Assembly (NCBI GenBank): GCA_020241125.1
Contig: GCA_020241125.1_4708.1
DNA length: 64,000 nucleotides
Reading direction: 5' to 3' (one strand)
Source: a phage
Below the pieces are notes generated by a model. That model worked only from the letters and a program-made list of their open reading frames with translations, did no database searches and was not told the DNA's origin. A program made the position numbers and the translations under genes. Below, one piece after another: positions 1 through 15,846 of this stretch; within the stretch, counting starts at the first letter, position 1, and each line of letters starts with the position of its first letter.

Positions 1-47
1 AAAAAAAAAAAAAATGATAGTCACAGGCTCTCCAATGAAGGAGAGCC
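1..47 (-). terminator. hairpin GGCTCTCC/GGAGAGCC followed by T14 on the minus strand
   Basis: 8-bp stem at 26-33 and 40-47; plus-strand A14 at 1-14 is a T14 run 3' of the hairpin on the minus strand; lies 3' of gene 60-761. Confidence 0.5.
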
Positions 48-59
48 GTGACCGTCAGT

Positions 60-761
60 TTAAGATGCAGATAATCTCGCGTACTTCTGGCGAACATGGT
101 TCTTACGGCGAACTTCGTCGTCCTCGTCACGCCATTCGAGGTAAGCAACGAATCGACGTAACTGCGCCGCCGTCATCGTTGACGAGCGGTCTTCTACGTC
201 TAGAACAACGTAACGAACATCACCAACGCCATCGCAATCAACGTAACTGAATACCAAAAGGCCATCGCCGTACTCAACGATGGTAACTTCGAATCGTTTA
301 TCGAACAAATAAAACAGTTCCGATTCAATGATCATCGGAATGACGCATAAATCAGCACGATTGAGGATTTCCATCATCACCCGTAACGCGCGAGGAGTAT
401 GGCGAGCGAACTGGTCGTTAAAACGTTGTTTCATCGCTTGTTCCACGCCATCTGTTTTTGTTCCAAACCACGGACGTACTACAGATTTCGGTGGTGTAAG
501 ACGAAAGCGATATGCTTGTATAAACAACAGAATATCAGCGACGTTAGGAAATTCTTCCTGGTCTTCGTATATCTTGCGGATAATATCCGGAATCGTAACC
601 ATCAAGTATTTCTTATCGCCTCCCACTTTCTCGAGATTAGCAATATGTCCTTCTACCACAGGCTGGTAAACGAAATTATACCAATGACGGTATCTTTCAG
701 TACGTTGGTAGTTTGGGATAAAATTAAGAATAATACTCACTGCGCGTTTTAATGGGTTCAT
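60..761 (-). CDS. hypothetical protein (233 aa)
   Basis: Intact ORF with ATG at 761 preceded by AAGGA; followed on the minus strand by a hairpin plus T14 run (26-47, 1-14). No recognisable motif. Confidence 0.65.
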   Translation of the reverse strand: MNPLKRAVSIILNFIPNYQRTERYRHWYNFVYQPVVEGHIANLEKVGGDKKYLMVTIPDIIRKIYEDQEEFPNVADILLFIQAYRFRLTPPKSVVRPWFGTKTDGVEQAMKQRFNDQFARHTPRALRVMMEILNRADLCVIPMIIESELFYLFDKRFEVTIVEYGDGLLVFSYVDCDGVGDVRYVVLDVEDRSSTMTAAQLRRFVAYLEWRDEDDEVRRKNHVRQKYARLSAS

Positions 762-775
762 CGGAAGGATCCTTC

Positions 776-1189
776 TTATGTTTTAATATGCACATCGTCA
801 ATCCCCTCGGTAATCCAGCCGATGGGAAGGACAATCGTTGTTATCCTGTTATGGGTGTAGTGGTTGAGAAAATGGAAATAGTAATTTTTGTTAGACTGTT
901 CGATCCGCAGGTCGAGATGCGCGTCTTCAGGTAACCGTAACCAAGCACCGTACAGTTCATTAAACTTACGCTGAATTTTACCGGGGTTCATTGGAACCCC
1001 ACGACCACGACGATGTAGCTGACGTAATGATTCAATCAAACACTCAGAGATACCCGTTGTCGTTCCGTTATCGCTTGTATCAATAACGATGAACTCTCGT
1101 GACCCACGACCGAGATAAAAGCCAGCGACAAAAGCTGCAGCAACAAAAATTATCGTACCGATACCAATATACCAATAGTAAGTATCCAT
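776..1189 (-). CDS. small membrane protein (N-terminal TM helix)
   Basis: ORF 776-1210 begins with TTG; the first ATG (1189) has a GAGG RBS 6 nt upstream; hydrophobic N-terminus YWYIGIGTIIFVAAAFVAGFYL. Confidence 0.6.
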   Translation of the reverse strand: MDTYYWYIGIGTIIFVAAAFVAGFYLGRGSREFIVIDTSDNGTTTGISECLIESLRQLHRRGRGVPMNPGKIQRKFNELYGAWLRLPEDAHLDLRIEQSNKNYYFHFLNHYTHNRITTIVLPIGWITEGIDDVHIKT

Positions 1190-1200
1190 AACGACCTCAC

Positions 1201-1728
1201 TTATACCCAATAGTCGGCAAGCGGTTTTACCTTATTAATGGGCAACTGTACTTTACCGATGTTCTCTACATCCGCATCAGCGTAGAGAACAATTTTATCA
1301 CCGTCTCTTTCCCAACGAATAATGAATCGACCAGGAAGAAGATTACTCTGTTCAAGAGACGCAGTAACCTGTTGTGTTAAAACAGACAACCAAGCAGGCA
1401 TCAGTGTTGCAACATCTAAGTCATTTGACCATTCAGCGCGTTGCTCCACTGGACGTAACATACGTTCGACGGTGCGTTGAACTGTTGCGGTGATATAGCC
1501 TTTATCTTCGTCACTGATTGGATCAGGACGAGACACAAAACGTTCAGCAGGCTTGTGGGTAATATATTCATGCAAATCGATGAGTGGTGTTGTCATAGTA
1601 CTCGCTCCATCAGAATGTAATTGGGTAACCCGTAGGGTTGTCTGCATGCTATTCAGCAGCGCAAAAGCGCCATAAACAACAACGATACCAAGTATAGCCA
1701 AAACAGAAATCATTAACGTGTATTGCAT
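1201..1728 (-). CDS. membrane-anchored protein (N-terminal TM helix)
   Basis: ORF 1201-1776 begins with TTG; internal ATG at 1728 (MQYTLMISVLAILGIVVVYGAFALL) follows GGGGAG; the rest is hydrophilic. Confidence 0.6.
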   Translation of the reverse strand: MQYTLMISVLAILGIVVVYGAFALLNSMQTTLRVTQLHSDGASTMTTPLIDLHEYITHKPAERFVSRPDPISDEDKGYITATVQRTVERMLRPVEQRAEWSNDLDVATLMPAWLSVLTQQVTASLEQSNLLPGRFIIRWERDGDKIVLYADADVENIGKVQLPINKVKPLADYWV

Positions 1729-1795
1729 TGTCATCTCCCCTACATACGCATCTTGAAGATCGGTTAAAAACAACAAAAGAAAAAACGATATAAAG

Positions 1796-1823
1796 CAAGG
1801 TCCTCTGATATCAGAGGACCTTG
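1796..1823 (-). terminator. 28-bp perfect palindrome hairpin with T-rich tail on the minus strand
   Basis: CAAGGTCCTCTGATATCAGAGGACCTTG; the minus strand continues CTTTATATCGTTTTTTCTTTTGTTGTTTTT. Confidence 0.6.
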
Positions 1824-1829
1824 GATCAA

Positions 1830-2486
1830 TTAGCTTGCAGCTTCTTCATTTGTATCAGGTTTGCTTCCCCCTAACAAACCGTCAAACAGACCCGTATGTT
1901 TCAGGTAGAAGAGAGCGATAGCGCCCATTGCTGCTGCGCTCGTCGCCGTTAACGCAACCCCGGCACGATACTGCCATTTACGATCAGGCTTTTGATCAAG
2001 AGCCATACGACGCATGTATTCAGCCTCTGCTTCATTCCGATGAATTTCGGATTCAGCCAAGCGGGCTAAGGTATCGCGGTCAAGGTTATCATAACGTACG
2101 TTCATGGTGGTTTCCTCTTGTTTGGAAGTTGATTGCTTAGTGGATTCTTGGTCAACAGTCGTTTCAGATGGTTCAAACGGCTGGTTGTTCATTTTCTGAT
2201 CTTTATTGGTCATGATAGACTCCTTCGATTTTTGAGACGAAATTGATTTAAACCATCGTGGATGGCGGTATTCAGTTTTACATGTGCAGTTAAGTTTCTC
2301 GTGCAGGAAAGCGTAAAAACGTTTTGCGCCTACACGTAAGGCTTTCAGCATTACCCATCCACGAGCACTCAAACGGTGTAGCTGTTGCGGTATGTCGAGT
2401 TTCCTAGCCAAGCGAAAGTATCTTTCAATCACTTCGATAGGAAACCATTGTTGTTCCACATCGGTGAGACTGAAAGTCTTATCCAT
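1830..2486 (-). CDS. membrane protein with C-terminal TM helix (alternative start ATG 2213)
   Basis: 218-aa ORF; very strong internal RBS AAGGAG before ATG 2213 gives a 127-aa product; C-terminal hydrophobic segment GVALTATSAAAMGAIALFYL; TATATTAC-type motif 32 nt upstream of 2486. Confidence 0.6.
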   Translation of the reverse strand: MDKTFSLTDVEQQWFPIEVIERYFRLARKLDIPQQLHRLSARGWVMLKALRVGAKRFYAFLHEKLNCTCKTEYRHPRWFKSISSQKSKESIMTNKDQKMNNQPFEPSETTVDQESTKQSTSKQEETTMNVRYDNLDRDTLARLAESEIHRNEAEAEYMRRMALDQKPDRKWQYRAGVALTATSAAAMGAIALFYLKHTGLFDGLLGGSKPDTNEEAAS

Positions 2487-2517
2487 GATTGAAATCTCGC
2501 TGGCTTACTTCACTTAA

Positions 2518-2534
2518 GTAATATAGCCGTGAAA
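2518..2534 (-). promoter_or_regulatory. candidate phage early promoter (minus-strand TTTCACGGCTATATTAC)
   Basis: Exact 17-mer repeated at 15116-15132; contains TATATTAC; 32 nt upstream of the start at 2486. Confidence 0.45.
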
Positions 2535-2636
2535 AATGTTGGATTAAGTTAAATACCGCAACCGCAGCTAATTTTATAGGCTTTTAGCCTAAACCAATCA
2601 TCTTCGGAATCATCATCTTTGAAACAGGAATCTATC

Positions 2637-3458
2637 ATGGAAAAAGTATTTGTTTGTAAGTTGTTTACCAACGGCAATAGCCAACCAATGTATCTGACCG
2701 ATCCTGTTCTAGGTAATCGGAACAGTACCGTATTCAAAGAGGCTTTCGAATACGCTAAAAATAAAGCCGTGAGAACACTGACGTCTGATGACTGTATCAA
2801 CGGTATCACGTGGGCAGAGTTAATCGGTGATGCCGTTCGACACTTCGTTCGGGATGCGAGAAAACGGGAAATCTGTCTCACGACTATTGTTGTGCGTGAA
2901 AACGCAGAAATTTTATCAAACGTTTTGGTTGATTTTAATGACGTTTGTGTGTTTAATCCAGAGAACACGTTTGAACAATACCTTACTGCCCTGAACAACC
3001 AGCTCGGTAAAGATATTCATCCCGAATTCGCCAAGTTAACATATCAGTTACTTTTTGACGACGTCGATCCAAATACGAAGATCGATACCAGCTTATCGCC
3101 CCTGGTAAAGAAATACGGATCGGTTCTCGCTACGGCAACACCCACCACCGATGGTGGTTATGATATCGAATTGGATGATCCATTAAAAGAACAAGAGCCT
3201 ACTGGGGTTAGGGCGGTACATCACAACCTCGTCGTTAAATCTGATGGATGCGATGAACATTACGCTATGATAAACGATGAAAACAATTACCGTTTAAGTC
3301 AAGCGATTGGTGTTCTACGCTATACCGAACCCACTGTTGTAGACGATTATACATCGACAACAACGCACACCACGTGTTTCATTTTCATCTATCCCAATGA
3401 AAGTGTGTACATTACCGACTGCTATGGCAATACCGTAGATAGCTTACGTCGTTATTGA
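2637..3458 (+). CDS. hypothetical protein (273 aa)
   Basis: ORF 2619-3458 begins with TTG; ATG at 2637 with AGGA 8 nt upstream; followed by a classic UUCG-loop terminator at 3464-3491. Confidence 0.7.
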   Translation: MEKVFVCKLFTNGNSQPMYLTDPVLGNRNSTVFKEAFEYAKNKAVRTLTSDDCINGITWAELIGDAVRHFVRDARKREICLTTIVVRENAEILSNVLVDFNDVCVFNPENTFEQYLTALNNQLGKDIHPEFAKLTYQLLFDDVDPNTKIDTSLSPLVKKYGSVLATATPTTDGGYDIELDDPLKEQEPTGVRAVHHNLVVKSDGCDEHYAMINDENNYRLSQAIGVLRYTEPTVVDDYTSTTTHTTCFIFIYPNESVYITDCYGNTVDSLRRY

Positions 3459-3463
3459 TTATC

Positions 3464-3491
3464 GAGCCTGTCCTTCGGGGCAGGCTTTTTA
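3464..3491 (+). terminator. intrinsic terminator with UUCG tetraloop
   Basis: AGCCTGTCC-TTCG-GGGCAGGCT followed by TTTTTA, 6 nt after the stop of 2637-3458. Confidence 0.75.
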
Positions 3492-3561
3492 TGCTGTTAA
3501 ATATCAGGAATAAGAATTAACAAAATAGGAAAATGGTGTGTATATAACACAAAGGAGGGAG

Positions 3562-3684
3562 ATGATTATGTTACTCATTCTAATGGAGAGAGCATTGCTG
3601 GCGGGTATCTGCGCATTCTCTGTTAAACACGCTGTTGCTATCATGGCTGAAGAAAGGCGTAATACGCATAATGTATTACGCTGA
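3562..3684 (+). CDS. small hydrophobic peptide (40 aa), not in the ORF track
   Basis: Perfect SD AAAGGAGGGAG ending 1 nt before ATG 3562; translation MIMLLILMERALLAGICAFSVKHAVAIMAEERRNTHNVLR; TATATAAC element about 20 nt upstream. Confidence 0.45.
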   Translation: MIMLLILMERALLAGICAFSVKHAVAIMAEERRNTHNVLR

Positions 3685-3794
3685 AAACACTGTGTGCATT
3701 AGTGTATGACGAGAAATCGTCGAGGCCCCCGTCTTCACGAGGGCCAACACCTATGCATGATTATTCATCGTCTGTTAAACAAAAGGTTATAAAC

Positions 3795-4103
3795 ATGAGC
3801 AATTTGAACGTTGAATTTACTTCAACAACGCCTGTCATGAATGGTGTTGGCACTGAAACCAAAATCGTATTAGAACCCATTCCAGGGTTACGCGATCTCG
3901 GTGATTTTTATCCACTGATGCCGCGTATACGGAAGGCCTTAAACAGTATCGATCTTGATTCCAATAAAGATTTCCAACACGATACAGAAAATACCGATCA
4001 TGTATTGCTGCCATCAGGGATCGCAAAATTCACCTACACGCAAACATTGAAAGCCTCTGATGGTGAAATCCGTCGTTTTATCGTTGAAGTAGAAAGCGCA
4101 TAA
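3795..4103 (+). CDS. hypothetical protein (about 102 aa; ORF extends to 3702)
   Basis: ORF 3702-4103; the ATG at 3795 is the one with an AAGG-like RBS; ends 5 nt before conserved hairpin 4108-4139. Confidence 0.5.
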   Translation: MSNLNVEFTSTTPVMNGVGTETKIVLEPIPGLRDLGDFYPLMPRIRKALNSIDLDSNKDFQHDTENTDHVLLPSGIAKFTYTQTLKASDGEIRRFIVEVESA

Positions 4104-4107
4104 AAAC

Positions 4108-4139
4108 CATCCTCCCAACCCGTAAGGGAAGGGAGGATG
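4108..4139. terminator. conserved two-tier hairpin, family copy 1 (bidirectional)
   Basis: CATCCTCCC-AACCC-GTAA-GGG-AA-GGGAGGATG between convergent genes 3795-4103 and 4157-4786. Confidence 0.7.
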
Positions 4140-4156
4140 AAATATGCCGTTAAACG

Positions 4157-4786
4157 TTATTCAACAAACCCTGCATTCAACAGATTGTCGTAAACACGAT
4201 TAGCGACATCAACAGGAGAATGTGTGTTACTGGTATCTATACGCAGCGTTTTCGCGTCGCCGAGATAGTCCATAAAATCCATGTAACGATAACGTCGTTT
4301 ATTGAATGTCGCTTCATCGATGTTATCAAACATCTGATGTTTAGCGTGACGAACACGGAACCGCCTTAAATACGTAGGATAGTCGATATCCAGATAAACA
4401 TAGTAAGACGGCATGATAATCGACGGTAGGTTCGGCAACAATGCGTCAAACAACTTAACGTTGGCATCATTAACCTGATAAACATACGTCGAAGCAATCG
4501 AACGATCGCTAAGCACAGTCTTCCCTTCGTTAAGGGCTGGATGAATCACCTTGTTGAAGAGATGATTACGTTGCGACATCATCGCCAATAGTTCAGTTTC
4601 TGGATCGAATCTGTTCGTTGGTGTCTGATCTTCCAGGATAAGTTTACGAATGGCTTCTCCGTAGAGCGTACCACCGGGTTCACGTACGACACAGACGTTG
4701 TTTAAACGACTGTGTAAAGACGAGATAACCGAACTCTTTCCTGAATAATCCAGACCTTCAATAACGATATATTTATTACGAGACAT
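4157..4786 (-). CDS. tmk: thymidylate kinase (dTMP kinase)
   Basis: P-loop YIVIEGLDYSGKSS near the N-terminus and DRSIASTYVYQ, matching Tmk-family motifs; ATG 4786 with GGAG RBS (ORF track start 4798 is TTG). Confidence 0.8.
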   Translation of the reverse strand: MSRNKYIVIEGLDYSGKSSVISSLHSRLNNVCVVREPGGTLYGEAIRKLILEDQTPTNRFDPETELLAMMSQRNHLFNKVIHPALNEGKTVLSDRSIASTYVYQVNDANVKLFDALLPNLPSIIMPSYYVYLDIDYPTYLRRFRVRHAKHQMFDNIDEATFNKRRYRYMDFMDYLGDAKTLRIDTSNTHSPVDVANRVYDNLLNAGFVE

Positions 4787-4802
4787 TCCCCGCTCCAATT
4801 AA

Positions 4803-6029
4803 CTACTTCGTTTTCGCCGTTATCGGCTGCGATACTGTAATCTCGACCCGATCGACATCGGTACGTTTAACGATGATAAGGCTGCGTTCATCACCGAATG
4901 GTTCTGAGATCTTACAAGCCTCTTTAAGATTTTCGAGAATCGTGCCATGGGGTTCAAACACCGCAAAACCGGAACTAGCGTCGATTCTTATTAAATATAC
5001 ACGCACATTGTTTACGGTAATGGTGTCATCCGTCTTGAACCCACAGCAGGAGGGTAGACAGAACTGACCATTAACGCAATTAGCTAAGTATGCCTCACCA
5101 CCGAACATTTCTATTAACGTCACCGGTTTAAATGTTTTCTCTGGGAAAGCATTATTAAGAATATCGTTTCCATTCACAAACCAGATCGTTACTTTATCTT
5201 CGGAATACGCTAGTCTGTATGGTTGGGTTGCGGACGCCTGCGCTTTATGCTGGTTAAATAACTTTGATTTTGTCGCAATCACAGCACGACCTTGGGCGTC
5301 AAAGTACAGAACTTCATACCCAACACATCCGATAAACACGCGACGGTTATTAAGTTCCGGAATTCTGACTACTAACGCATTACCATCTTCCGTCGGTGTA
5401 ATACCACGTAGGATGATAGATTCGTTGTTCAATGTTGAGTTGCTCACGATGACGCTTCGCATTACCGCTGGCGACACTATTTCATCTGCTGCAGGTTCAA
5501 GTTGCTCCGCTGTTACAGTCACGGATCTGTCTTCCTTTTCAACTGGCCAGTTGAAAAGGATTGTTTTATTAAGACAAACAATTGGGGTAATTTCGCCGAT
5601 ACTCCGTATCTTGACTGAGGGGCAATTGCACACATACGGAACAAAAACATCAATATCGTTGGTCGCTTCTTCAAGCATGCTAGCATACGCCATTGCTTCG
5701 GGACGATCGGTGAGATGAATAACAGCATAGACGATATCGTCTTTTAACCACGCACGTTTCACTCGTCCTATAACACGATTGATGTCTACAATAACTCTCT
5801 GAGCTTTCATCTCCCATTTTACTGCATCAGTACCACCCGCAACCACGTTCGGTTTATCCGTGTTTACACGATGAAGGAAACTATTGATTATTTCCTCATC
5901 GATCTGGATATCCTTTCTCGCAAAATTCAACAACGGAATAACGAACTCATTGTTACCGCACTTCTCTGCTCCGCGAATGATAGGAGTACACTTCTTGTTC
6001 TCATCTGATCCCCAGATAACTTTAGTCAT
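4803..6029 (-). CDS. hypothetical protein (408 aa)
   Basis: ORF 4803-6056 begins with GTG; ATG 6029 has AAGGAAA RBS; N-terminus MTKVIWGSDENKK; no phosphoesterase motifs seen. Confidence 0.65.
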   Translation of the reverse strand: MTKVIWGSDENKKCTPIIRGAEKCGNNEFVIPLLNFARKDIQIDEEIINSFLHRVNTDKPNVVAGGTDAVKWEMKAQRVIVDINRVIGRVKRAWLKDDIVYAVIHLTDRPEAMAYASMLEEATNDIDVFVPYVCNCPSVKIRSIGEITPIVCLNKTILFNWPVEKEDRSVTVTAEQLEPAADEIVSPAVMRSVIVSNSTLNNESIILRGITPTEDGNALVVRIPELNNRRVFIGCVGYEVLYFDAQGRAVIATKSKLFNQHKAQASATQPYRLAYSEDKVTIWFVNGNDILNNAFPEKTFKPVTLIEMFGGEAYLANCVNGQFCLPSCCGFKTDDTITVNNVRVYLIRIDASSGFAVFEPHGTILENLKEACKISEPFGDERSLIIVKRTDVDRVEITVSQPITAKTK

Positions 6030-6062
6030 TTTCTGTTTCCTTCTTGGGTTTTGCACAAGTTT

Positions 6063-6677
6063 CTAACGGCGTTTTGTACCGACCTTCCCATTTCGATGGT
6101 CATCAAGAATACGCCATTCTTCGAACAGGAGTTCGGCTGCGAAATAACCTACAGCGATGCTGTCTATCGCATGCTCATCAAGATTCGCTAACACAACACC
6201 GTTTCTGGGTGTGATGTTCATGAGGTTCAACACTTTCTGGCGAACATCGTCCTTACCAACACGGGACGTCATAATCCCAACAGCGCGTTTTGCGCTTCGG
6301 TTATCAACCCCTAAGAAAGATACCGTAGGATCAAAATCGATAACCGTTGTCTGAATCGCTGAAAACAGCTCGCTGAGCGCCATACCGCTTTGCTTGAAAC
6401 GACCGATGAATGGCGTCTCACAAGCGACCGCTTGCGGCTGGTACTCTTGCAATAACGTTGTCAGTGAACGACGGTGTTCTTGGATACGTGCGGCACGATT
6501 ACCGTATCCAAGCGCAATATCGCCATCGGGATCATATCGACGTGAAGCGTGCCATGTCCCTGCATACAGCAGTTCAATATCTTCGACACGCACGTCCAAA
6601 CGTAGTAACGACGCACCGAGTGTATCGGTGCCAGGGTCGATTGCCAGAATATCGTAAGCGTATTCTGGTGGGATCAT
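6063..6677 (-). CDS. RuvC-like Holliday-junction resolvase
   Basis: Motifs ILAIDPGTDTLGAS, AVACETPF and DEHAIDSIAVG match the RuvC catalytic acidic residues; ATG 6677 overlaps the upstream stop as ATGA (translational coupling). Confidence 0.7.
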   Translation of the reverse strand: MIPPEYAYDILAIDPGTDTLGASLLRLDVRVEDIELLYAGTWHASRRYDPDGDIALGYGNRAARIQEHRRSLTTLLQEYQPQAVACETPFIGRFKQSGMALSELFSAIQTTVIDFDPTVSFLGVDNRSAKRAVGIMTSRVGKDDVRQKVLNLMNITPRNGVVLANLDEHAIDSIAVGYFAAELLFEEWRILDDHRNGKVGTKRR

Positions 6678-7486
6678 GGTGTTACAACAGCCTCTACTGA
6701 CCATGGGAAGGTTTTCGCAACAACACCTTCCAGGAAGCGTTCAACTTCCGATTGCTCATACACCGAAAGCTTTTCGAACGGCGTTTGGTCTTCGGTTAAA
6801 CCTATCGCGTGAATAGGACCCAGGTCTTTAACCAGAGTGACTTCGCCTTTAACGCCTTCGCGTTTAACGATGATCGCATGATCATTAACCTTGGGATCAT
6901 ACAGCACGCGCATCATGGTTACCGCGTCATCCGGTTCATGACCGAAATCGATGGCAACACGAGCATTCGTCCCTTCATCATCCAGAAGCTTGCTCAGCGC
7001 TTTACAACGGTCTTCAATCCAATCCAACGCAACCACGGTTTCTTGGCGTAGCTGAACCTCAACTTCTTTTCCTTGTTCGTCGATACGTTTCACGGTAACA
7101 AAATCGTGTAATAGGCGGTCAGGAAGGAGGGAAGCAATAAGCTCAATGTTGGGTTCAGGTTTTTCGTTTTCCAGAATGATGGTCGCTTGTGCGTCCAGAT
7201 GTTCTTTAAAACGGATGTAGCGCGTTAATCGCAGAACTTCATCTTGGGATTTTGCGTCTTCGGGAATAATCTCCGTCATGACGTTATAAATCTTTTCAGC
7301 GAACGTCGGAATTACGGTGATTGTAATTCGTGCTGGTGTACCACGCTCCTGGTACTCATCGGCTAACTTCTTCGCCATCCCGTTAAAGTAGGTCTGGAGA
7401 AACGGTTGCTGCGTTAAAAACATTTTCTCCAGATCGGAATAGCGATGCTTGCGTGCATGGCCTAGCTTCTTCATGGGTTTTTTCAT
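6674..7486 (-). CDS. hypothetical protein (270 aa) in the recombination module
   Basis: ORF with ATG 7486 and AAGGA RBS; no recognisable catalytic motif; sits between the SbcC-like and RuvC-like genes. Confidence 0.65.
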   Translation of the reverse strand: MKKPMKKLGHARKHRYSDLEKMFLTQQPFLQTYFNGMAKKLADEYQERGTPARITITVIPTFAEKIYNVMTEIIPEDAKSQDEVLRLTRYIRFKEHLDAQATIILENEKPEPNIELIASLLPDRLLHDFVTVKRIDEQGKEVEVQLRQETVVALDWIEDRCKALSKLLDDEGTNARVAIDFGHEPDDAVTMMRVLYDPKVNDHAIIVKREGVKGEVTLVKDLGPIHAIGLTEDQTPFEKLSVYEQSEVERFLEGVVAKTFPWSVEAVVTP

Positions 7487-7507
7487 CAACAGAAATCCTT
7501 ATTTGTC

Positions 7508-9964
7508 TTAAATAATCGTGACGTGTTCGTTATATGTTTCAGGGAGAATGATGTTCGTTTTATCAAGAACCATACACTCGGCTTTACGGAATGATGCATG
7601 GTTGATCACATAGTGACTGATGAACCACACCTGGCTTACGCGGTGACCATCAACCAGACGACGAACAAAATCCATGGCATTAGATTGGTGCTGCGGATCA
7701 AATGTTGATGCGAATTCATCTAACATCAACGGATAATCCGTAAACCCCTTGTAATGCATCATCGCGATGATGAACGCGATATTGATAATTTCCTTTTGTC
7801 CCTTACTCCCATAAACAATATCTTTTCGCGGTGTCGGATACTTCTCAGTTAAAAGCGGAAAACGATAGTTCAATCCTTGCGCGTCGATAGCACACGGGAG
7901 TATCTGAAGTTGGTATTCCCAAATACTCGCAATGATGCCGTTCATGTACTCAACGAACGCGTTGATGGGACCCGCAATTGTTTCGGCAATCAGTCCGTTG
8001 GATGGACTCAACTCATCCAGAACAAGTTGTGCGTAACTGAGCTGTTCTTCCACCTCTTTTTGTGTCGTTTCCAACTGAGCCAGAAGCTGCTGGTCGGTTT
8101 TAGCTTCCTGTAGTTGCTGTTCGACATGACTTATTCGGCGAACTGTATCAGACATCGCAGCACGTAACGATTTCGTGTAGAGGTGTTGCAGATACTCTAA
8201 CCACAGTTGCGTTAACGCTTTATCGCTGTTATCAGAACGTACCTGATCTTCCATAATCGCCGTAATGGTTTCCAATCTACCTTCCGTAGCTGTGATGGCT
8301 TGTGTTAACCGCTCAACGGTTGTTAACAACTCTGTCCTGTTCTTATAAAGCAATTCTCGACGTTGCTGTAACGGTTCAACATCAACCGCTTGTACACGTT
8401 CGAGCATGCCTTGAAGATGTTTACGTTCTTGTTCGGCTTGTGTATAACGTGCGAGTTTCTCGAATGCAAGCAACCAATCATTAATGATTCCAATGCTGCG
8501 GAATCCTAATCCGTTTTTACGTCCTTCTTCCAGCAGATTGTCCCACATGGGTTTAATGGCGTAATAATCCTTCGTCCAACGTGTTAACTGACGATGTTGT
8601 TCCATCCAGAGCGTATAACGCTGAACCTTCTCGCTAAGCTCAGCTAACGATTTCTCTTGTTCTTCAACCCAAGCACGGCCTTTCTGAATGCGTTGTTCAA
8701 TACTCGCTTTGCTGGTCTTTTCCGTTTCACCAACATGAAAGCGATAATTGCATTTTGGACAGCTGGTCTGGGGTTGATGATTCAGATGGTCGAGATGCGC
8801 TTCCAAATCGGCTAACGCATGTTTCGCGTTACGCAAACGCATTCTTGCTGCCTCTTCCTCCTTGATGTAAGCTTCAGCATCGTAAACATGATAGGTGTTG
8901 TCGGTATCAATCCATTCTTGCAATAGTTCCGTTAACGGAGCCTGAACTTGTGTGAGCTGTTGTAAACAAACCGCAGCGTCCAGATTCATCGTTAAAAGCT
9001 CACCTGGATGATCTTGCTGAAGTTGTTCGTCCAAACATGCAATGCGGGCTTTAATTTGATCGATATCACCTTCGCCAGACTGTTTCAACTGGTCAAGGAT
9101 ATTATCGATACCCAACAGCTCGTCAACCTGACTTTCGAGTTTTGCATTCGCATTCGCGAGTTGCTCTCTTAGTTCAGCCAGATTCTGCTGTTCTTGTTGC
9201 GATGTTCCTCCTTGGTAACGAACAACCGCACGAAGAAGCTCGCGATTAAAATGATGGGCACGTTGTGCGGATTCCAGAAGCTGTCGTTGATCAACATCGC
9301 TATCGAATAACGGCAATCCCATCATCGCTTCGAGCGCTGAGCGTTGCTGTTTTAACTCTGCTTCCAATCCCTGGTGGTCGGTGCCCGTGTATTTCGCTTC
9401 AATGCGCTGTGATGTTTCAACCAACTTATTCAGTGTATGCTCATTCACCGCTTTCAGTGAACGTACTTGTTGCTTAACAACCTGAAACAACTCGAGCGCA
9501 TAATCGACGTTAACCGGACATATCTGTGTTAATCGTTCGCGGCGTTTCATCGGTCCCATTTCGGTGAACTGATAAGCCGTTTCGTAACCTAGCAACAAAC
9601 GAATGGTGTCATCATTAAGTTCGAAATGTTCTTCAATCAGTTTCCATTGGGCCGGTTGTGTGCCACCACCGTTCAGGTTCTCGCTGTCGTTAACGTAGAA
9701 CTCATGCTTAAACCCTTTTTCTAAACGACTGATAAGACGGTATTGCTTATTACGGTGTTCGCAGCGGTACTCGTAATACCCGTCTTTATCAAAATCAGCA
9801 CGCTCAGGAACGGTCGGATACAGCAAAGGCAATAGACTACTCTTACCGGAACCATTACTGCCTAAAATGAGTTGTACGGGATTATCTGGCCGGATGACCA
9901 GCTCCCGAATCATCCCGGTATCAAAACGATTGAATCCACGTAAGTGGAGATAGGTGCATCGCAT
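7508..9964 (-). CDS. SbcC/Rad50-like SMC-type ATPase
   Basis: Walker A LILGSNGSGKSSLL, long central heptad-rich region with CPKCNYRF (CxxC zinc-hook-like), C-terminal GSKGQKE signature-like and LMLDEFAST Walker B; ATG 9964 with AAGGA RBS (ORF track start 10000 is GTG). Confidence 0.8.
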   Translation of the reverse strand: MRCTYLHLRGFNRFDTGMIRELVIRPDNPVQLILGSNGSGKSSLLPLLYPTVPERADFDKDGYYEYRCEHRNKQYRLISRLEKGFKHEFYVNDSENLNGGGTQPAQWKLIEEHFELNDDTIRLLLGYETAYQFTEMGPMKRRERLTQICPVNVDYALELFQVVKQQVRSLKAVNEHTLNKLVETSQRIEAKYTGTDHQGLEAELKQQRSALEAMMGLPLFDSDVDQRQLLESAQRAHHFNRELLRAVVRYQGGTSQQEQQNLAELREQLANANAKLESQVDELLGIDNILDQLKQSGEGDIDQIKARIACLDEQLQQDHPGELLTMNLDAAVCLQQLTQVQAPLTELLQEWIDTDNTYHVYDAEAYIKEEEAARMRLRNAKHALADLEAHLDHLNHQPQTSCPKCNYRFHVGETEKTSKASIEQRIQKGRAWVEEQEKSLAELSEKVQRYTLWMEQHRQLTRWTKDYYAIKPMWDNLLEEGRKNGLGFRSIGIINDWLLAFEKLARYTQAEQERKHLQGMLERVQAVDVEPLQQRRELLYKNRTELLTTVERLTQAITATEGRLETITAIMEDQVRSDNSDKALTQLWLEYLQHLYTKSLRAAMSDTVRRISHVEQQLQEAKTDQQLLAQLETTQKEVEEQLSYAQLVLDELSPSNGLIAETIAGPINAFVEYMNGIIASIWEYQLQILPCAIDAQGLNYRFPLLTEKYPTPRKDIVYGSKGQKEIINIAFIIAMMHYKGFTDYPLMLDEFASTFDPQHQSNAMDFVRRLVDGHRVSQVWFISHYVINHASFRKAECMVLDKTNIILPETYNEHVTII

Positions 9965-10078
9965 GCTATGATAATCCTTCTTCGATACCTTCTGAACCAC
10001 GGGTTCAGAATGCTAAGCTGAAGCCATACTTCAGCGTTATTTTCTATATCGTTATTTAAATCAGTAGGAGATTACAGC

Positions 10079-11167
10079 ATGAGCGACCTGGCAACAGACA
10101 ATCGCACAAAAGGGAGTCAGCTAGCTCCAGACAACAACGTAAGCGTTTTCCGTATCTATGCCTTGGGTACTGTTGCTGCCGACTTTTCCAATAAAAGTCT
10201 GGAGGAAGATCCTAACCAGACGCTGGAGGTCTTTCTTGATGAGATGATGTCAGGCGCTGATGGGAAAGTTGAAGCGGTGGGAAGCGTTAAAGAAGTCAGT
10301 GCAACAGACGCTCAAGGGAACAGCTATACGGCGAAAGCGGCAACAACAACCAGCATACAGTGTTACTGGTTACCCTTCGGCAGTAACCGGATGACAGCAC
10401 CTAACTTGAGGAAAGGTCAGCGTGTGGTGGTTTGGCGTACCGCGGATGAAGAACAACTCTATTGGCAACCCAAAGGAGGGGATAGCGAGCTGATGACCAT
10501 GGAATCGGTTATCCTCACCGTCAGCGCACGTCCTAGCGCCAAGAAGGACCGTAAATCGATTTCAACGGAAGACTGCTATTACCTAATGGTTGATACCTTC
10601 CTCAAGAAAGCGGTTATCGGCACCAGCGCACAGCTTGGTGAAGTTACCCAAGTCTACATGGAACTTAATCTGGACGAGGGTTACCTACAGGTTGCGGACA
10701 GCGTTCATCAAAATCTGTTGTTACTCCATTTTGTCGAGCATATGCTGCGTTATCAAAACCAGGACGACAGCATCATCGACGTGACAAAAAAGAACATCAC
10801 GTTCCAGTGCGAGGATACGCTCAAAGCAATCGCTAAGAACGATATCCGAATGAAAGCAAAAAATATTTATACGGAATGTGAGAACTTTGAACGTACCAGC
10901 AAAACAGAAAGCGTTACGAGTCAGAATGTTTCTTTGAAGTGTGATCGTTACACCGCGCAAGTATCAGGACAGACCACGTTTAAATGTCCTAATACGGTAT
11001 TCACTGGAGCTGTAAGCTTCACAGGTGAAGACGGAAACACGATGACGTTGAATGGGAACTTCGTACACATCGCAGGCTCTTGGCGTTCACCAACCGGAAC
11101 AAACGTATACACCCACGATCACGGTGGTGTAGATCGTGGTAGCGGTCGTACAGACCCGTTCCAATAA
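10079..11167 (+). CDS. hypothetical protein (362 aa), possibly beta-rich structural
   Basis: ATG 10079 with TAGGAG RBS; C-terminal THDHGGVDRGSG; ends at bidirectional hairpin 11199-11233. Confidence 0.65.
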   Translation: MSDLATDNRTKGSQLAPDNNVSVFRIYALGTVAADFSNKSLEEDPNQTLEVFLDEMMSGADGKVEAVGSVKEVSATDAQGNSYTAKAATTTSIQCYWLPFGSNRMTAPNLRKGQRVVVWRTADEEQLYWQPKGGDSELMTMESVILTVSARPSAKKDRKSISTEDCYYLMVDTFLKKAVIGTSAQLGEVTQVYMELNLDEGYLQVADSVHQNLLLLHFVEHMLRYQNQDDSIIDVTKKNITFQCEDTLKAIAKNDIRMKAKNIYTECENFERTSKTESVTSQNVSLKCDRYTAQVSGQTTFKCPNTVFTGAVSFTGEDGNTMTLNGNFVHIAGSWRSPTGTNVYTHDHGGVDRGSGRTDPFQ

Positions 11168-11198
11168 ACAGAAGAAAAAAAAAAGAAATGCAATACAA

Positions 11199-11233
11199 CC
11201 TCCTTCCCTAGCCGTCAAGGCCGGGGAAGGAGG
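11199..11233. terminator. conserved hairpin, family copy 2 (variant loop)
   Basis: CCTCCTTCCC ... GGGGAAGGAGG arms between convergent genes; A10 run at 11177-11187 is a T-run on the minus strand. Confidence 0.65.
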
Positions 11234-11248
11234 ATTATAGTTTATTTA

Positions 11249-11638
11249 TTAACGCGTTGCATTCTGGATGATTTCTTTTCCGATCTTAACCAAAGCGGGT
11301 ATCTGTACAGCGGTTGCGCCTCGATGACGAAACGCGGTCGTTAACGCGGTATCGATACTCACCGCACGTCCGTGAAGACGATCGAAATAGACTTGAGTGA
11401 TTGCGGTAGCGTAATCCTTTCGCTGTTTCTTGGTTTGGCTCAACAGCGCCGCACTATGACTAACGATGAAGTAAGCGATTAAGAAGAACGCCGCTGACCG
11501 AGAACCAGGTAGAAAACCTTGTCGCTTAGGGAGCATCTCACAATCGCGAACACTATTATCGTTCGCCAGCTCTTCCATATCAACACAGCATAATTTTGCA
11601 TAGGTGTGGAGATAGTGGGTAAAAGTTGAATTTAACAT
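11249..11638 (-). CDS. hypothetical protein (129 aa)
   Basis: ATG 11638 with GAGGAAA RBS. Confidence 0.6.
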   Translation of the reverse strand: MLNSTFTHYLHTYAKLCCVDMEELANDNSVRDCEMLPKRQGFLPGSRSAAFFLIAYFIVSHSAALLSQTKKQRKDYATAITQVYFDRLHGRAVSIDTALTTAFRHRGATAVQIPALVKIGKEIIQNATR

Positions 11639-11743
11639 TTTCTTTCCTCGATTGCCATGAGTTCAATGTATAGCTTAAACGTCACAGAACGACGTATAAC
11701 GGTTTGTTTTAATTTCTAAGGGGTTTCCTTATCTAAGATTGAT

Positions 11744-12106
11744 TTAAAGCGTTCTGAAGAGTTCTGTAGCGTTCTCGTCACGTAGGCAGGCTTCGTTCAA
11801 CAATTCAGCTAACAGCTTCGACCGAACTTCAACAAATGTCCTGAGGCGATGCTCCCATTCTAAACGGATAGTGTACGTATTATCCAGGTTTTTGTAATCA
11901 ACGACAGATGTAGAACAACGGGCCTCGCGTTTGTTCACAGCACTCCAAACATCACGGATAACCGTCACGCCTTTCTTGGTACACGTAAACGTTAAAATAA
12001 AGCGATTATTCGCAGCTTCTTCACGGACGCCAACAAATTCACTTCGCAACGATGAGACTTTGATCAGTCGGTCAATAGCTAACGATAAACCGATACGTTG
12101 TTGCAT
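11744..12106 (-). CDS. hypothetical protein (120 aa)
   Basis: ATG 12106 with AAGGA RBS; part of a leftward cluster of small genes. Confidence 0.55.
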   Translation of the reverse strand: MQQRIGLSLAIDRLIKVSSLRSEFVGVREEAANNRFILTFTCTKKGVTVIRDVWSAVNKREARCSTSVVDYKNLDNTYTIRLEWEHRLRTFVEVRSKLLAELLNEACLRDENATELFRTL

Positions 12107-12107
12107 A

Positions 12108-12533
12108 TCAAATTCCTTCTTTCAGAATCTCATTAAGACCGTCAGTAATCCAGTCGAACTTCGTCTTAATCATGGCTGGGTTCAATCCATATACTTCCCA
12201 CACAAGCTGGGGTTTATGTGTTCCATCGTCCAAACAAAGCACATCGATTGAGAGTACCATACCACCCGTCAATTTCATGTTCTCGCAACTACGAAGATAT
12301 GCGGATTCTAGCAATACTTTCCCTAACGCAGTGCAAGCAAATGTTAACCGGGAAGAGTACAGGTACGATGACGTTTTACAGTAGGTTGCTGATATCGGTT
12401 GAATATGTTTGCGGAGTTTGGCGTCTTCACGTAAAAGCAATAACGTGTGATGTAACCGCGTATGCTCGGTAACCGATGAGCTATACTCACAGATACACTC
12501 TTCGGCGACTGATTTAGGCCATTTAATTTTCAT
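12108..12533 (-). CDS. hypothetical protein (141 aa), weak paralog of 12549-12992
   Basis: ATG 12533 with GAGGA RBS; N-terminus MKIKWPKSVAEE resembles MEIKFCKSIAIV of the upstream gene. Confidence 0.55.
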   Translation of the reverse strand: MKIKWPKSVAEECICEYSSSVTEHTRLHHTLLLLREDAKLRKHIQPISATYCKTSSYLYSSRLTFACTALGKVLLESAYLRSCENMKLTGGMVLSIDVLCLDDGTHKPQLVWEVYGLNPAMIKTKFDWITDGLNEILKEGI

Positions 12534-12548
12534 GTTCGATTCCTCGTA

Positions 12549-12992
12549 TTAACACTGTGTTCCATTCGATAAGCGGGTGGTATCAAAACGATCCAGTTGG
12601 TGTACAATGCTATCAGCAACACGATGCAAATAGTGTATTTTGTCCATTCGTGAAATCGCAGAAATCGTCCAGCAAGCCTCTGACGTCCAATAGGTGCCGT
12701 CTTCACTAAGGCTAACGTTATAAACTAACTTCGTCATCACATTTCTCGCCTTATGCTCAGCAGACCAGAATATGTTTTCTAACACATCCTTCCCCGTTTG
12801 TGAAAACACGAACCCAAGCTTCACGTCGAAGTCGGATGCTTCAAGATTAACGCAGTGAAGATGATTCTCTAACGGCGCAAAAGAGGCTAAACGTTCCAGC
12901 GCATGTTGCAGTGTGGGATGATCGAGCTTTTCGAGATCATCCGCAGGTTGTTCAGGTACAATCGCGATCGATTTACAGAATTTAATTTCCAT
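12549..12992 (-). CDS. hypothetical protein (147 aa)
   Basis: ATG 12992 with AGAGGA RBS. Confidence 0.6.
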   Translation of the reverse strand: MEIKFCKSIAIVPEQPADDLEKLDHPTLQHALERLASFAPLENHLHCVNLEASDFDVKLGFVFSQTGKDVLENIFWSAEHKARNVMTKLVYNVSLSEDGTYWTSEACWTISAISRMDKIHYLHRVADSIVHQLDRFDTTRLSNGTQC

Positions 12993-13104
12993 GGTAGGTT
13001 CCTCTTGATAGTGGTTGATGATAGTAACGGGGACGGCGATGTCCCCTTGGTTTCTTATTGCCCCGCCCGAACCCGATGGGGTACAGGCGGGTGATGTTGA
13101 TGCG

Positions 13105-13512
13105 TTATAGCGGCATCAGACGTTCTTTAAGTTGGGTTAACTTATTTGCAACGATGTTCTCAACGTCGATCATCTTGTTCATGTTGTCGAGGGTATCCTG
13201 CCAGATGAAAATATCCACGGAACCGGTTCCGACTAACGCGTTCTCAGGACGATGGTCACGGGTCACGTAGCGTGGTCTCTGCGGGCAGGTTTGTAACTCG
13301 ATCCAAAGCGCATCTAACGGACCACGGTCCGTGACACCTAAGGCGAAGAATTCACCTCGTACGACCAGAACATCATCAGCCGTCCTGACACGGGTTGATC
13401 CTTCGTACACCAATTCCATCTTTGCTCGACAGGCTGGGTTCTCGTTCCACGCCTGGACGGCATCGGCAAGGGCTATTGACGTTGCGGTGGTGTTCGTTTG
13501 ATCATGTTGCAT
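13105..13512 (-). CDS. hypothetical protein (135 aa)
   Basis: Intact ORF with ATG 13512. Confidence 0.55.
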   Translation of the reverse strand: MQHDQTNTTATSIALADAVQAWNENPACRAKMELVYEGSTRVRTADDVLVVRGEFFALGVTDRGPLDALWIELQTCPQRPRYVTRDHRPENALVGTGSVDIFIWQDTLDNMNKMIDVENIVANKLTQLKERLMPL

Positions 13513-13589
13513 TCTAAGCTCCTGTAACGCTCTCTAAGCGTCGTTTTAAGTTAAGGTATAGTTTCCCTTCTTTGGATTCGTTTATTGCG

Positions 13590-13865
13590 TTATACGGCTT
13601 TTCTGTGCGCGTAGAACGCCTTCGTTCCGTTGTTGATTGCTTCAACCACATCCCGGGTTAACACAACGGCGTTATCGCTTCGAGACGACGGTGCGTAATA
13701 CCCTTCACCGTTCTCGGTAATCAGGCGATAACGGACTAAGCCTATGCTCGGTTCAACACGTAGCACCTTCTCAAGTTTGTATTTGATGATCTTCGTCAGG
13801 CTAACCGTGTCTGACACGTAGATCGCTTTATAAACTTTGTTCTTTGCTGTGGGTTTCATCAACAT
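13590..13865 (-). CDS. hypothetical protein (91 aa)
   Basis: Intact ORF with ATG 13865. Confidence 0.5.
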   Translation of the reverse strand: MLMKPTAKNKVYKAIYVSDTVSLTKIIKYKLEKVLRVEPSIGLVRYRLITENGEGYYAPSSRSDNAVVLTRDVVEAINNGTKAFYAHRKAV

Positions 13866-13905
13866 GATTTCTGTTGTATTTTCCTTTTCGCTTGTTGGTG
13901 TTGGA

Positions 13906-14205
13906 TTAATGTTTAGGTTCCGTTTTGTGTTGTGCGAGTAATGTGTTGATCTGCTCCCGTTGTTCTTTTAAGCATGCAGGAAGCTGGTCTTCCCGTACCG
14001 TTCCGATTTCCAACGTGATGTACCAACGTTGTTCGGAAGCCTGCCATTGAAAACTGCTCTGTAACCTCAGGATGCTAGGATCACGTACCTTGCTTGCACT
14101 GTAACGGTTGAACCAATCCAGGTATGCTGCTTTCCCTTCCTCGTCAGCGATGTAACGCTGCACGCTGTTCTTCCCTTTGTTCTCGTATCCCGTTGCACGT
14201 ATCAT
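13906..14205 (-). CDS. hypothetical protein (about 100 aa)
   Basis: ORF 13906-14259; ATG 14205 overlaps the stop of the upstream gene as ATGA. Confidence 0.5.
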   Translation of the reverse strand: MIRATGYENKGKNSVQRYIADEEGKAAYLDWFNRYSASKVRDPSILRLQSSFQWQASEQRWYITLEIGTVREDQLPACLKEQREQINTLLAQHKTEPKH

Positions 14206-14984
14206 GCGAACGTTTCTCCTGTAATGTGTTGCGGATGGCGTAGCATGGTAGCATCCCATTGTACGATCTGGCTTCGGCTTACCCGCATCATGATGGATTC
14301 GTCATCAAGCCCCTGTTGCGCAACCGGCAACCAACGTTCCCCAAGCACCTTCGCTTCAACACGTTTCTTGCGTGGGTTGTAACGCACCTCGCTAACCCAA
14401 GCGAATCCAAGCGGATGGACTACCCGTGGATAAAACATGCGAAGCAATTGATGCATCCGATCCGTTGCCTCCAATTTGCCATCCACCATGTAAGGTTTCA
14501 CCATGGTAAGCTTTTTGGTGTAATACGTTCCAACGGTATGGTTACGCCAACTTGGCAAGGCATGATCCCCTTCTCTCAGTTTGCTATCCGAGTTCATTGA
14601 CCAGACCTGCTGTTTACCGGCCAGCATCGCGTACTGCCGATCAACGCAACGAACCCGATCGGCGAACAATGGATCCAGGACATCATCCACCGCGCCCTTA
14701 TTGCGATAACCGTGATGTACCACCAACCTGCTTGCGCTCATCGATGCGGGATGCTGGCTCTTATGCGCATACAGCCCTCCGTCACCGCGAGCGTCGTAAA
14801 GATAACCGCATGCGCCACGCCATATCACCTTGCCTACGGTTCTCTCGTCTTCAAGCAGCATCGTCGGCCCATCAAGCAAATTGGTGAACCACTGCACCTT
14901 CACGCATTCCGCTTGGACATGCTCAGGTAATGCCTGATACTCTTTTTGGGTGTATAAGGTATCAAAAATGATTTCTTCGTTCAT
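14202..14984 (-). CDS. hypothetical protein (260 aa), first gene of a leftward unit
   Basis: ATG 14984; promoter-like motifs at 15065-15078 and 15116-15132 lie upstream on the minus strand. Confidence 0.65.
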   Translation of the reverse strand: MNEEIIFDTLYTQKEYQALPEHVQAECVKVQWFTNLLDGPTMLLEDERTVGKVIWRGACGYLYDARGDGGLYAHKSQHPASMSASRLVVHHGYRNKGAVDDVLDPLFADRVRCVDRQYAMLAGKQQVWSMNSDSKLREGDHALPSWRNHTVGTYYTKKLTMVKPYMVDGKLEATDRMHQLLRMFYPRVVHPLGFAWVSEVRYNPRKKRVEAKVLGERWLPVAQQGLDDESIMMRVSRSQIVQWDATMLRHPQHITGETFA

Positions 14985-15064
14985 TTAAAAAGTTCCTCTG
15001 TTTCACGTTAATTAAACAACGTATTGATTTCTATTTGACAGAATACGAACATCGTACGTATCTA

Positions 15065-15078
15065 TCACTTAGGTAACG
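15065..15078 (-). promoter_or_regulatory. TTACCTARGTGA motif, degenerate copy
   Basis: TCACTTAGGTAACG resembles the exact 16-mer found at 43272-43287 and 51447-51462. Confidence 0.3.
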
Positions 15079-15115
15079 CTTACGCGTCGCGTTCATGATA
15101 CCATGCATCATGAAG

Positions 15116-15132
15116 GTAATATAGCCGTGAAA
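15116..15132 (-). promoter_or_regulatory. candidate phage early promoter, second exact copy
   Basis: Identical 17-mer GTAATATAGCCGTGAAA (plus strand) upstream of the leftward small-gene cluster. Confidence 0.45.
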
Positions 15133-15367
15133 GGATTTGTGTTAACGCAAGGGTTTTGTTTGTTTTTTAAGAAGGGATGGATTTAGAAGAGGTGTTTCAA
15201 GGAAGGTAAACGAGAATAGGTATTTTGATTTAAGTAAGATGTTATCTGTATCCGTTAGAAGTGTATTGTCTAAGTTATCTTGTTTATCTTAGGTTTAATC
15301 GTTTTTATCTTGGTATGTTTAAGTTGTTTTTATTTAACTGTTAAAATGCTTATCTTCAAAACAATGG

Positions 15368-15422
15368 ATAACATGTGTTTACTACGCTCGTTGAGTTATA
15401 ACTCAACGGTAACACATGTCAT
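15368..15422. repeat. nested palindrome
   Basis: Perfect 20-bp palindrome CGTTGAGTTATAACTCAACG (15389-15408) flanked by inverted arms AACATGTGTT and AACACATGT. Confidence 0.6.
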
Positions 15423-15811
15423 CTGTGCATTACACTACGTTACATGCTAGTTAAATCGGATAACTCAAAAAAACATTTGTGATACTCTTCTTCACGTTGT
15501 TCATCAGAGTATCTCGTCTATACTCATTGCATTCGTATACGACATAACCGTTACACGCTAACGCTACGCTTATAGCTTGATAACTCTAAGGATAAAAACA
15601 TAAACTCGCTTCGCTCGTTTAGTTTTTCTTTTTCTTAGAGTTATCCTGTTGCTCGTCTCTAAAGGACTTCGCTCCTCCCCCGTCCCCCGAAGGGGCCGAG
15701 GTCGTGGAAATTTTACTTTCCAAATACATTTACAACATCTGTAAACTTTTACTCCAGGTACTTAATCTTATCATTAGAAATTATAAAAGAGAAAATAAAC
15801 ACAAACATAAA

Positions 15812-15846
15812 CCTTCCCCCGACCCGTAAGGGAAGGAGGAAGGGAG
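15812..15846 (-). terminator. conserved hairpin, family copy 3
   Basis: CCTTCCCCCGACCC-GTAA-GGGAAGGAGGAAGGG, 9 nt 3' of the stop of 15855-16748. Confidence 0.65.

Follow-up and report, generated by a model that had tools for sequence, protein, structure and literature searches.

The window analyzed here, a stretch of 64,000 nucleotides of phage DNA taken at its full length, matches the left end of Escherichia phage vB_EcoM_Goslar, from position 43 to ~62,280, with ~95% identity (92 to 97% for most of the window), apart from a few short segments that are more divergent or have no alignment. Goslar is a phiKZ-like, nucleus-forming jumbo phage (Chimalliviridae) of 237,307 bp with E. coli as its host and, judged by this alignment, the window phage is a Goslar-like chimallivirus. 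The genes for the virion RNA polymerase (vRNAP) are located outside the window. For the comparison of motifs and expression, we put together the Goslar genome and its annotation. Two large minus-strand ORFs of the window, homologues of the Goslar virion proteins gp025 and gp029, have in common tandem repeats with a period of 183 nt (61 codons), located at 19079-19960 and 24782-25801.

The 17-mer GTAATATAGCCGTGAAA occurs exactly on the plus strand at 2518-2534 and at 15116-15132, where the first-pass annotation had placed it, and a relative with three mismatches lies at 51455-51471. Read on the minus strand (TTTCACGGCTATATTAC), both exact copies are intergenic and stand, as had also been claimed, in front of minus-strand units, 32 nt before the ATG of the ORF at 1830-2486 and 132 nt before that of the ORF at 14202-14984. 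The 17-mer is the core of a longer motif of ~40 nt with the consensus nTTAAYnCAAAwww-TTTCACGRC-TAYATTAC-YTwnGTGA, which we found at four sites in the window, all intergenic and all on the minus strand. We refer to these sites as P1 to P4. P1 and P2 hold the two exact copies, and P3 and P4 are two further members of the promoter family that were absent from the earlier reading. The sites are positioned below by the final C of TAYATTAC (anchor C) and scored in bits with the weight matrix that follows.

P1 (2509-2548, minus strand; anchor C at 2518; 52.5 bits) includes the copy at 2518-2534, sits in a divergent intergenic region, and is identical over its 40 nt to Goslar 2551-2590. Its transcript is predicted to start at the G at 2511, so that a 5' UTR of ~25 nt would precede the ATG at 2486. 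Early unit 1 (60-2511, minus strand) contains the ORFs at 1830-2486, 1201-1776, 776-1210, and 60-761, which are the homologues of Goslar gp004 to gp001, with a strong hairpin at 1796-1823 after the first gene. Two proteins of this unit were scanned and had no match in Pfam or PHROG. P2 (15107-15146, minus strand; anchor C at 15116; 50.6 bits) includes the second copy of the 17-mer, at 15116-15132, and has four differences from its Goslar counterpart, each in a column that varies within the family. Its predicted start at 15109 would leave a 5' UTR of ~125 nt. Early unit 2 (11249-15109, minus strand) consists of eight small ORFs, from 14202-14984 to 11249-11638, homologous to Goslar gp021 to gp014.

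The surroundings of P2 have some features of their own. Immediately after the predicted P2 start, the window carries a 43-bp insertion relative to Goslar (~15066-15108), which ends in TTACCTAAGTGAT, a sequence similar to the 3' portion of the promoter motif (ATTACYTwnGTGAT); the insertion may be a relic of recombination between promoters. On the other side, 665 bp without any ORF (15147-15811) separate P2 from the terminator of the gp022 homologue. This segment has six copies of GATAAC/GTTATC within 400 bp and the palindrome CGTTGAGTTATAACTCAACG at 15389-15408, and the only equally dense GATAAC cluster in either the window or Goslar is found at P4. An Rfam scan of 14900-15900 returned a single sub-threshold chance hit (isrI, E=0.81).

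P3 (43271-43310, minus strand; anchor C at 43280; GAATAGAAAAAATTTGACGCTTACATTACCTAGGTGAC; 44.4 bits) is likewise identical to Goslar over 40 nt, and its start is predicted at 43273. Early unit 3 (36923-43273, minus strand) is made up of the ORFs at 41686-43128, 39850-41649, 37257-39815, and 36923-37195, homologues of Goslar gp040 to gp037, and ends at a hairpin at 36845-36900. P4 (51446-51485, minus strand; anchor C at 51455; TTTCGCGACTACATTACCTAGGTGAT; 45.1 bits) has a predicted start at 51448 and a putative 5' UTR of ~57 nt that would open with a hairpin of 7 to 9 bp. Early unit 4 (48180-51448, minus strand) begins with two ORFs absent from Goslar, at 50618-51391 (257 amino acids) and 49630-50610 (326 amino acids), continues with those at 48985-49554, 48513-48914, and 48180-48506, which correspond to Goslar gp046 to gp044, and ends at a hairpin at 48128-48168. 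Pfam and PHROG scans of ten proteins encoded downstream of the promoters returned nearly all of them as orphans, the only solid match being the PHROG category "polymerase" for the ORF at 39850-41649 (gp039 homologue).

The two additional ORFs of unit 4, both on the minus strand, lie on a 1.77-kb segment (49614-51386) that stands in place of 82 bp of Goslar (49575-49656). This segment is directly downstream of P4, which is kept in both phages, and the 257- and 326-amino acid proteins had no match in Pfam or PHROG. It looks like an accessory early-gene cassette that was gained or lost behind a fixed promoter. The annotated Goslar gp047 (62 amino acids, 49584-49772) spans both P4 and the scar left by the deletion, so this ORF is unlikely to be a genuine gene.

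That the match is exact over 17 nt is by itself weak evidence, because exact repeats of 15 to 16 nt occur by chance elsewhere in the window. When up to three mismatches were allowed, the 17-mer pattern gave three matches in the window as compared to 0.22 expected, and none of 100 shuffles reached three. The bare 8-mer TATATTAC was not enriched, with 4 copies in the window versus 1.68 expected and 10 in Goslar versus 7.5 expected, and neither was the 11-mer GGCTATATTAC with two mismatches allowed. Thus, the bare 8-mer cannot by itself support a promoter claim. The significance comes from the longer context: TTTYN5TAYATTAY was found 3 times in the window (0.10 expected) and TAYATTACYTnnRTG 11 times in Goslar (0.1 expected).

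The weight matrix, built after these pattern searches, has 40 columns that run from -30 to +9 relative to the anchor C. It detected 12 strong sites in Goslar, with leave-one-out scores of 31 to 51 bits, the highest score in 30 Markov-2 random genomes being 11.8 bits. Every one of the 12 is on the minus strand, 32 to 212 nt before a minus-strand gene. The four window sites scored 44 to 52 bits against the same null maximum of 11.8, and a model-free repeat search of the window also returned P1 to P4 (repeat families D7 and D8). Thirteen of the matrix columns are invariant in Goslar, and four more are kept in 11 of the 12 sites. TAYATTAC is present in all 12 Goslar and all four window sites, with seven of its eight columns invariant, and the columns of TTTCACG are each kept in 10 to 12 of the 12 Goslar sites. 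The A at -27, the A at -22, and the G at +7 occur in 12/12 sites, the A at +8 in 11/12, and about one third of the Goslar sites carry TACATTAC. Eight of the ten bare TATATTAC copies in Goslar fall within matrix sites, which leaves two non-promoter copies where ~7.5 were expected, and all ten are on the minus strand; this shortage of stray copies may reflect selection against the core element outside promoters.

Over the four promoters, the window and Goslar differ by nine substitutions, none of which falls in the 17 invariant or near-invariant columns; the chance of this is (23/40)^9, or ~0.007. That the two 17-mers are exactly alike is a peculiarity of the window strain, as the second site of Goslar reads TTTCACGACTACATTAC, and in IMG/VR, the exact 17-mer was found solely in Goslar and three Goslar-like contigs.

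One alternative is that the sites are host promoters, with TTAAYn serving E. coli RNA polymerase (RNAP) with sigma-70 as a weak -35 element and TAYATT as its -10 element in the transcription of the first phage genes. TAYATT indeed retains the key -10 positions T1, A2, and T6, so that the motif shares a TAnnnT hexamer with E. coli sigma-70 promoters, and P2 is the best such match within positions 1-16000 (TTAACA-16-TATATT, 10/12). P1, P3, and P4 fail the same consensus scan, however, and sigma-70-like matches show no overall enrichment (23 versus 29 expected and 10 versus 23 expected). Unlike in sigma-70 promoters, the conservation runs here beyond the hexamers and into the transcribed region: the invariant columns G-10, C0, T+2, T+6, G+7, and A+8 lie outside the sigma-70 determinants, and the TTTCACG block is just 3 nt away from TAYATT. 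Moreover, the motif has been kept in phages that infect Pseudomonas, Erwinia, and Klebsiella, and early transcription of the phiKZ type is independent of host RNAP. Together with the continued transcription of the downstream genes from a genome held in a vesicle that carries the vRNAP, as described below, these data make recognition by sigma-70 very improbable.

Published early promoters of related phages resemble the motif closely. The early consensus of phiKZ is TATATTAC, that of 201phi2-1 is TTTRARR_BTATATTACDWHDGTG, and those of N1M2, OBP, and EL are TTTCARRYAKATATTATYWAAGTGWA, TTTYARRYAKATATTATYWWADTG, and TTTYAAACCTACATTATY, respectively, with TTTCARRYAKATATTATYWAAGTG as the joint early consensus of N1M2 and OBP (PMC7058600). 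The statement of the first-pass annotation that TATATTAC is the phiKZ early consensus is borne out by this published table, and the likeness extends further, to the longer consensuses of 201phi2-1, OBP, and N1M2; P1, which reads TTTCACGGCTATATTACTTAAGTGAA, has the same blocks at the same spacing as these. Early promoters of jumbo phages have been described as having a conserved A/T-rich element of ~10 nt centered near -10 and a T-rich block upstream of -19, with conservation around -10, -20, and -30. In AR9, the early promoter is AAATATATATTAT-(6N)-G(+1) (PMC5312081), and phiKZ and phiR1-37 also start 6 nt after the element. The G found at +7 in all 12 Goslar sites, taken together with the spacing in AR9, phiKZ, and phiR1-37, leads to the predicted starts at 2511, 15109, 43273, and 51448. 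The "TSS sequence" of Goslar chmA has been described as beginning 91 nt before the ATG, which neither confirms nor contradicts our predicted start, 66 nt before the ATG.

The chimallin genes provide a direct comparison. The Goslar matrix detected a site before the phiKZ chimallin gene PHIKZ054 (TGTAATGAAAAAAATTTGAGATTTATATTACTAAATTGAA, 26.2 bits), for which a primary start site bearing the early motif has been mapped. This site has 30 of 40 positions in common with the Goslar chimallin (gp246) promoter, AATATTGAAAAAAATTTCAGGGTTATATTACCTAGGTGAA, and the distance from the anchor C to the ATG is 73 nt in both phages, the two proteins being ~25% identical. Weaker matches at a similar distance were found upstream of chimallin in RAY (20.7 bits) and Noxifer (15.3 bits), and at a greater distance in Eowyn (12.2 bits) and PhiPA3 (7.1 bits). 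In IMG/VR, the pattern TTTCA-N4-TATATTAC-N4-GTG is present in >120 stretches, mostly from contigs of 150 to 317 kb and often several times per contig. The positions left free by this pattern agree with Goslar among 110 such sites: upstream of TTTC, A, T, and A are favored at distances of 11, 9, and 6 bases, and GTG is followed by an A in 82%.

The predicted units can be compared with a published Goslar experiment. Armbruster et al. (bioRxiv 10.1101/2023.09.20.558163) reported that knockdown of chimallin (ChmA) leaves the Goslar genome in the early infection vesicle, which carries the vRNAP, and that the knockdown transcriptome at 30 min matches 5 min of wild-type infection. This knockdown RNA-seq already delimits the early units. 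We used the per-gene counts of their Supplementary Table 2 (knockdown versus control, log2 fold change of replicate A, hereafter log2FC); these counts come from Goslar, the 95%-identical relative, at 30 min of infection under ChmA knockdown, are possibly not strand-specific, and reflect the vRNAP indirectly rather than through a direct assay of the enzyme. The log2FC values are bimodal, with 145 genes above -1.31 (retained) and 102 below -2.46 (lost). The retained genes form nine contiguous regions, which are leftward save for a few internal plus-strand genes. Strong matrix sites mark eight of the nine upstream boundaries of these regions, and at the ninth (gp225|gp224) we found the highest-scoring of the sub-threshold sites, with 15.4 bits. 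The late regions contain no strong site (hypergeometric P 1.4e-11).

The remaining four strong sites fall within retained regions. Three coincide with clear step-ups in log2FC: from gp106 (+0.19) to gp105 (+1.08), from gp176 (-0.43) to gp175 (+0.93), and from gp245 (-0.72) to chimallin gp246 (+0.95). At the fourth, the change from gp183 (+1.09) to gp182 (+1.32) is marginal. Thirteen sites for 145 retained genes imply either units of up to ~30 kb or further, unrecognized promoters of another kind. The step-ups at Goslar gp236 and gp183 have no matrix match upstream, which suggests additional early starts whose motif is degenerate or of another type.

In the Goslar region equivalent to the window, the retained genes are gp004-001, gp021-014, gp040-037, and gp047-044, which correspond one to one to P1 to P4, and all other genes from gp005 to gp057 drop 5- to 190-fold. 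At P1, gp004 has a log2FC of +1.26 versus -7.33 for its upstream neighbor gp005; gp003-001 are at +0.4 to +0.6, below gp004, a decrease that fits partial termination at the hairpin at 1796-1823. At P2, gp021 (+1.20) contrasts with gp022 (-5.35), gp021-014 are all between +0.88 and +1.26, and the flanking gp013 and gp022 are at ~-5. P3 separates gp037-040 (+0.69 to +0.97; gp040 +0.94) from the major head gene gp041 (-4.01), and P4 separates gp047-044 (+0.84 to +1.19) from gp048 (-3.29). The suggestion of the first-pass annotation that phiKZ-type early promoters precede leftward early clusters at the two 17-mers is supported by these data, as gp004-001 and gp021-014 are retained and gp005 and gp022 fall ~100-fold; the same pattern would be expected in the window phage given its identity to Goslar. 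Two plus-strand strings that had been listed as related elements with one mismatch did not hold up and do not belong to the family. AATATTAC (26439-26446) is present, but it scores -52.0 bits and the downstream gp030 is late (log2FC -5.16), and TATATAAC (3543-3550) is likewise present at -32.2 bits before the late gp006 (log2FC -5.44).

The same experiment bears on the question of which phage enzyme reads the motif, as the sites could be middle-class promoters for the non-virion polymerase (nvRNAP). Expression of several of the downstream genes, chimallin among them, continues through the whole infection, start sites of both the early and the middle class are known for PHIKZ054, and the nvRNAP subunits are still made in the ChmA knockdown. 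On the other hand, the middle and late motifs of phiKZ are different (TATG at the start and, near -22 to -24, a weak element that is AT-rich or reads TACT), the knockdown transcriptome is that of 5 min post infection, and the motif fits the early consensus in every phage compared. Because the middle and late motifs differ and the knockdown transcriptome corresponds to 5 min, recognition by nvRNAP is highly unlikely. A third reading would have the motif as a binding site for some other factor, such as a regulator or an element of replication or packaging, located at operon starts by coincidence. The GATAAC repeat clusters beside P2 and P4 hint at other DNA-binding activities, but the strict orientation of the sites, their short distance to the first gene, their exact coincidence with the on/off boundaries of early transcription, and their homology to mapped promoters leave only a minute chance for such a coincidence.

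We also examined the hairpins that lie at the borders of the units. A conserved family of GC-rich, terminator-type hairpins with the core CCTCCnCCAACCCGTAAGGGAAGGAGGAGG is present at 4104-4144, 15808-15848, 27764-27804, 36845-36900, 43326-43366 (minus strand), 48128-48168, 51492-51532, and 62725-62765 (repeat families D5 and D6). Its members sit where transcription units end, in many cases between convergent genes or shortly before early promoters, and the orthologous Goslar positions near 27746-27777 and elsewhere carry a terminator annotation. These hairpins are probably bidirectional terminators. P3 is located ~15 nt downstream of the hairpin at 43326-43366 and P4 ~7 nt downstream of that at 51492-51532. 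Thus, with hairpins both before P3 and P4 and at the close of units 3 and 4, the layout is that of a late unit, a terminator, an early promoter, an early operon, and again a terminator.

A second type of hairpin was found at the predicted 5' ends of the transcripts themselves. Six of the 13 predicted Goslar early transcripts open with a hairpin in which pairing begins at the predicted +1, as compared to 7% of controls (P ~1e-4, post hoc), and the hairpin position in Goslar peaks at +7 from the anchor C. Such 5'-end hairpins are located at 15097-15109 and 51427-51448 in the window and at the Goslar sites 15060, 49725, 86698, 113790, 166062, and 172971. Among 104 sites in other jumbo phages, which are not independent of one another, 24% have a 5' hairpin versus 8% of controls, with a broad peak from +5 to +9. 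The overall folding energy of the 5' UTRs did not differ from that of random 45-mers (P=0.2), and it is the hairpin position alone that stands out. One might combine the ~40-bp tripartite sequence, a stem-loop at or near the first transcribed bases, and a role as landing pad into a larger conserved module, a proposal that we regard as doubtful. In such a module, the tripartite sequence would have hardly changed between Goslar and phiKZ, even as the protein under its control diverged to ~25% identity, the 5' hairpin could make early mRNAs more stable or label them for export out of the infection vesicle, and the promoters would serve as landing pads for the gain or loss of accessory early genes, such as the two-gene cassette behind P4.

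Together, these data indicate with high confidence that the 17-mer is the central part of a ~40-bp early promoter of Goslar-like chimalliviruses, most likely recognized by the vRNAP. All five subunits of the Goslar vRNAP, gp78, gp196, gp205, gp207, and gp210, have been detected in virions. This multisubunit enzyme, packaged in the virion, transcribes the injected genome within the early infection vesicle, at a stage when the phage nucleus has yet to form. TAYATTAC would act as a -10-like element at about -14 to -7, preceded by TTTCACGRC at about -23 to -15 and by the A/T-rich TTAAYnCA block at about -36 to -29. The invariant T-G-A that follows would contain the transcription start, predicted at its G, seven bases after ATTAC. 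Each of the four window promoters would thereby head a leftward operon of mostly orphan genes, with P3 and P4 placed directly behind the putative terminator hairpin that ends the preceding late unit.

What emerges is a concrete model of the early promoters in Goslar, a chimallivirus of E. coli, and in related phages, consisting of a consensus, 12 to 13 sites in Goslar, and four in the window. Because work on the phage nucleus and the early infection vesicle in E. coli relies mainly on Goslar as its model, a map of the Goslar early units has practical uses, in the design of reporters and knockdowns, in defining the earliest set of genes, and in the study of DNA recognition by a multisubunit polymerase that lacks a sigma factor. 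We found no description of a Goslar early-promoter motif in the literature searched. Early promoters of the phiKZ type are a known class, and a Goslar-type case is what specialists would expect rather than a surprise.

Among known systems, coliphage N4 offers a parallel, as its injected polymerase also reads a few dedicated early promoters. The N4 enzyme is a single-subunit virion RNAP, and its promoters are DNA hairpins; within our motif, no inverted repeat was visible on inspection. In AR9, as at the sites described here, six bases separate ATATTA(T/C) from a conserved G, which in AR9 is the mapped start (PMC5312081). In contrast to Goslar, AR9 is not a chimallivirus, has uracil-containing DNA, and is without the TTTCA block; its use of a vRNAP was deduced from the independence of early transcription from protein synthesis (PMC5312081). 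A closer likeness is found in 201phi2-1, OBP, and N1M2 (PMC7058600), which have TTTCA, four variable bases, (T)ATATTA(C/T), four bases, and GTG(A), together with an A/T-rich block further upstream. The spacer of the other phages is mostly GATA or GATC, as compared to CGGC or CGAC here, and N1M2 and OBP end in ATTAT, while the motif described here ends in ATTAC. Last, phiKZ (Ceyssens et al. 2014; Wicke et al. 2021, PMC8244752) has the same arrangement of the -10-like element TATATTAC and a T-rich block before early operons, including that of chimallin. It differs in reading TTTGAGATT at the chimallin promoter, the sole phiKZ site examined, where the Goslar type has TTTCACGRC, and in having 28 to 32 sites, as compared to 12 to 13 in Goslar with its E. 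coli host.
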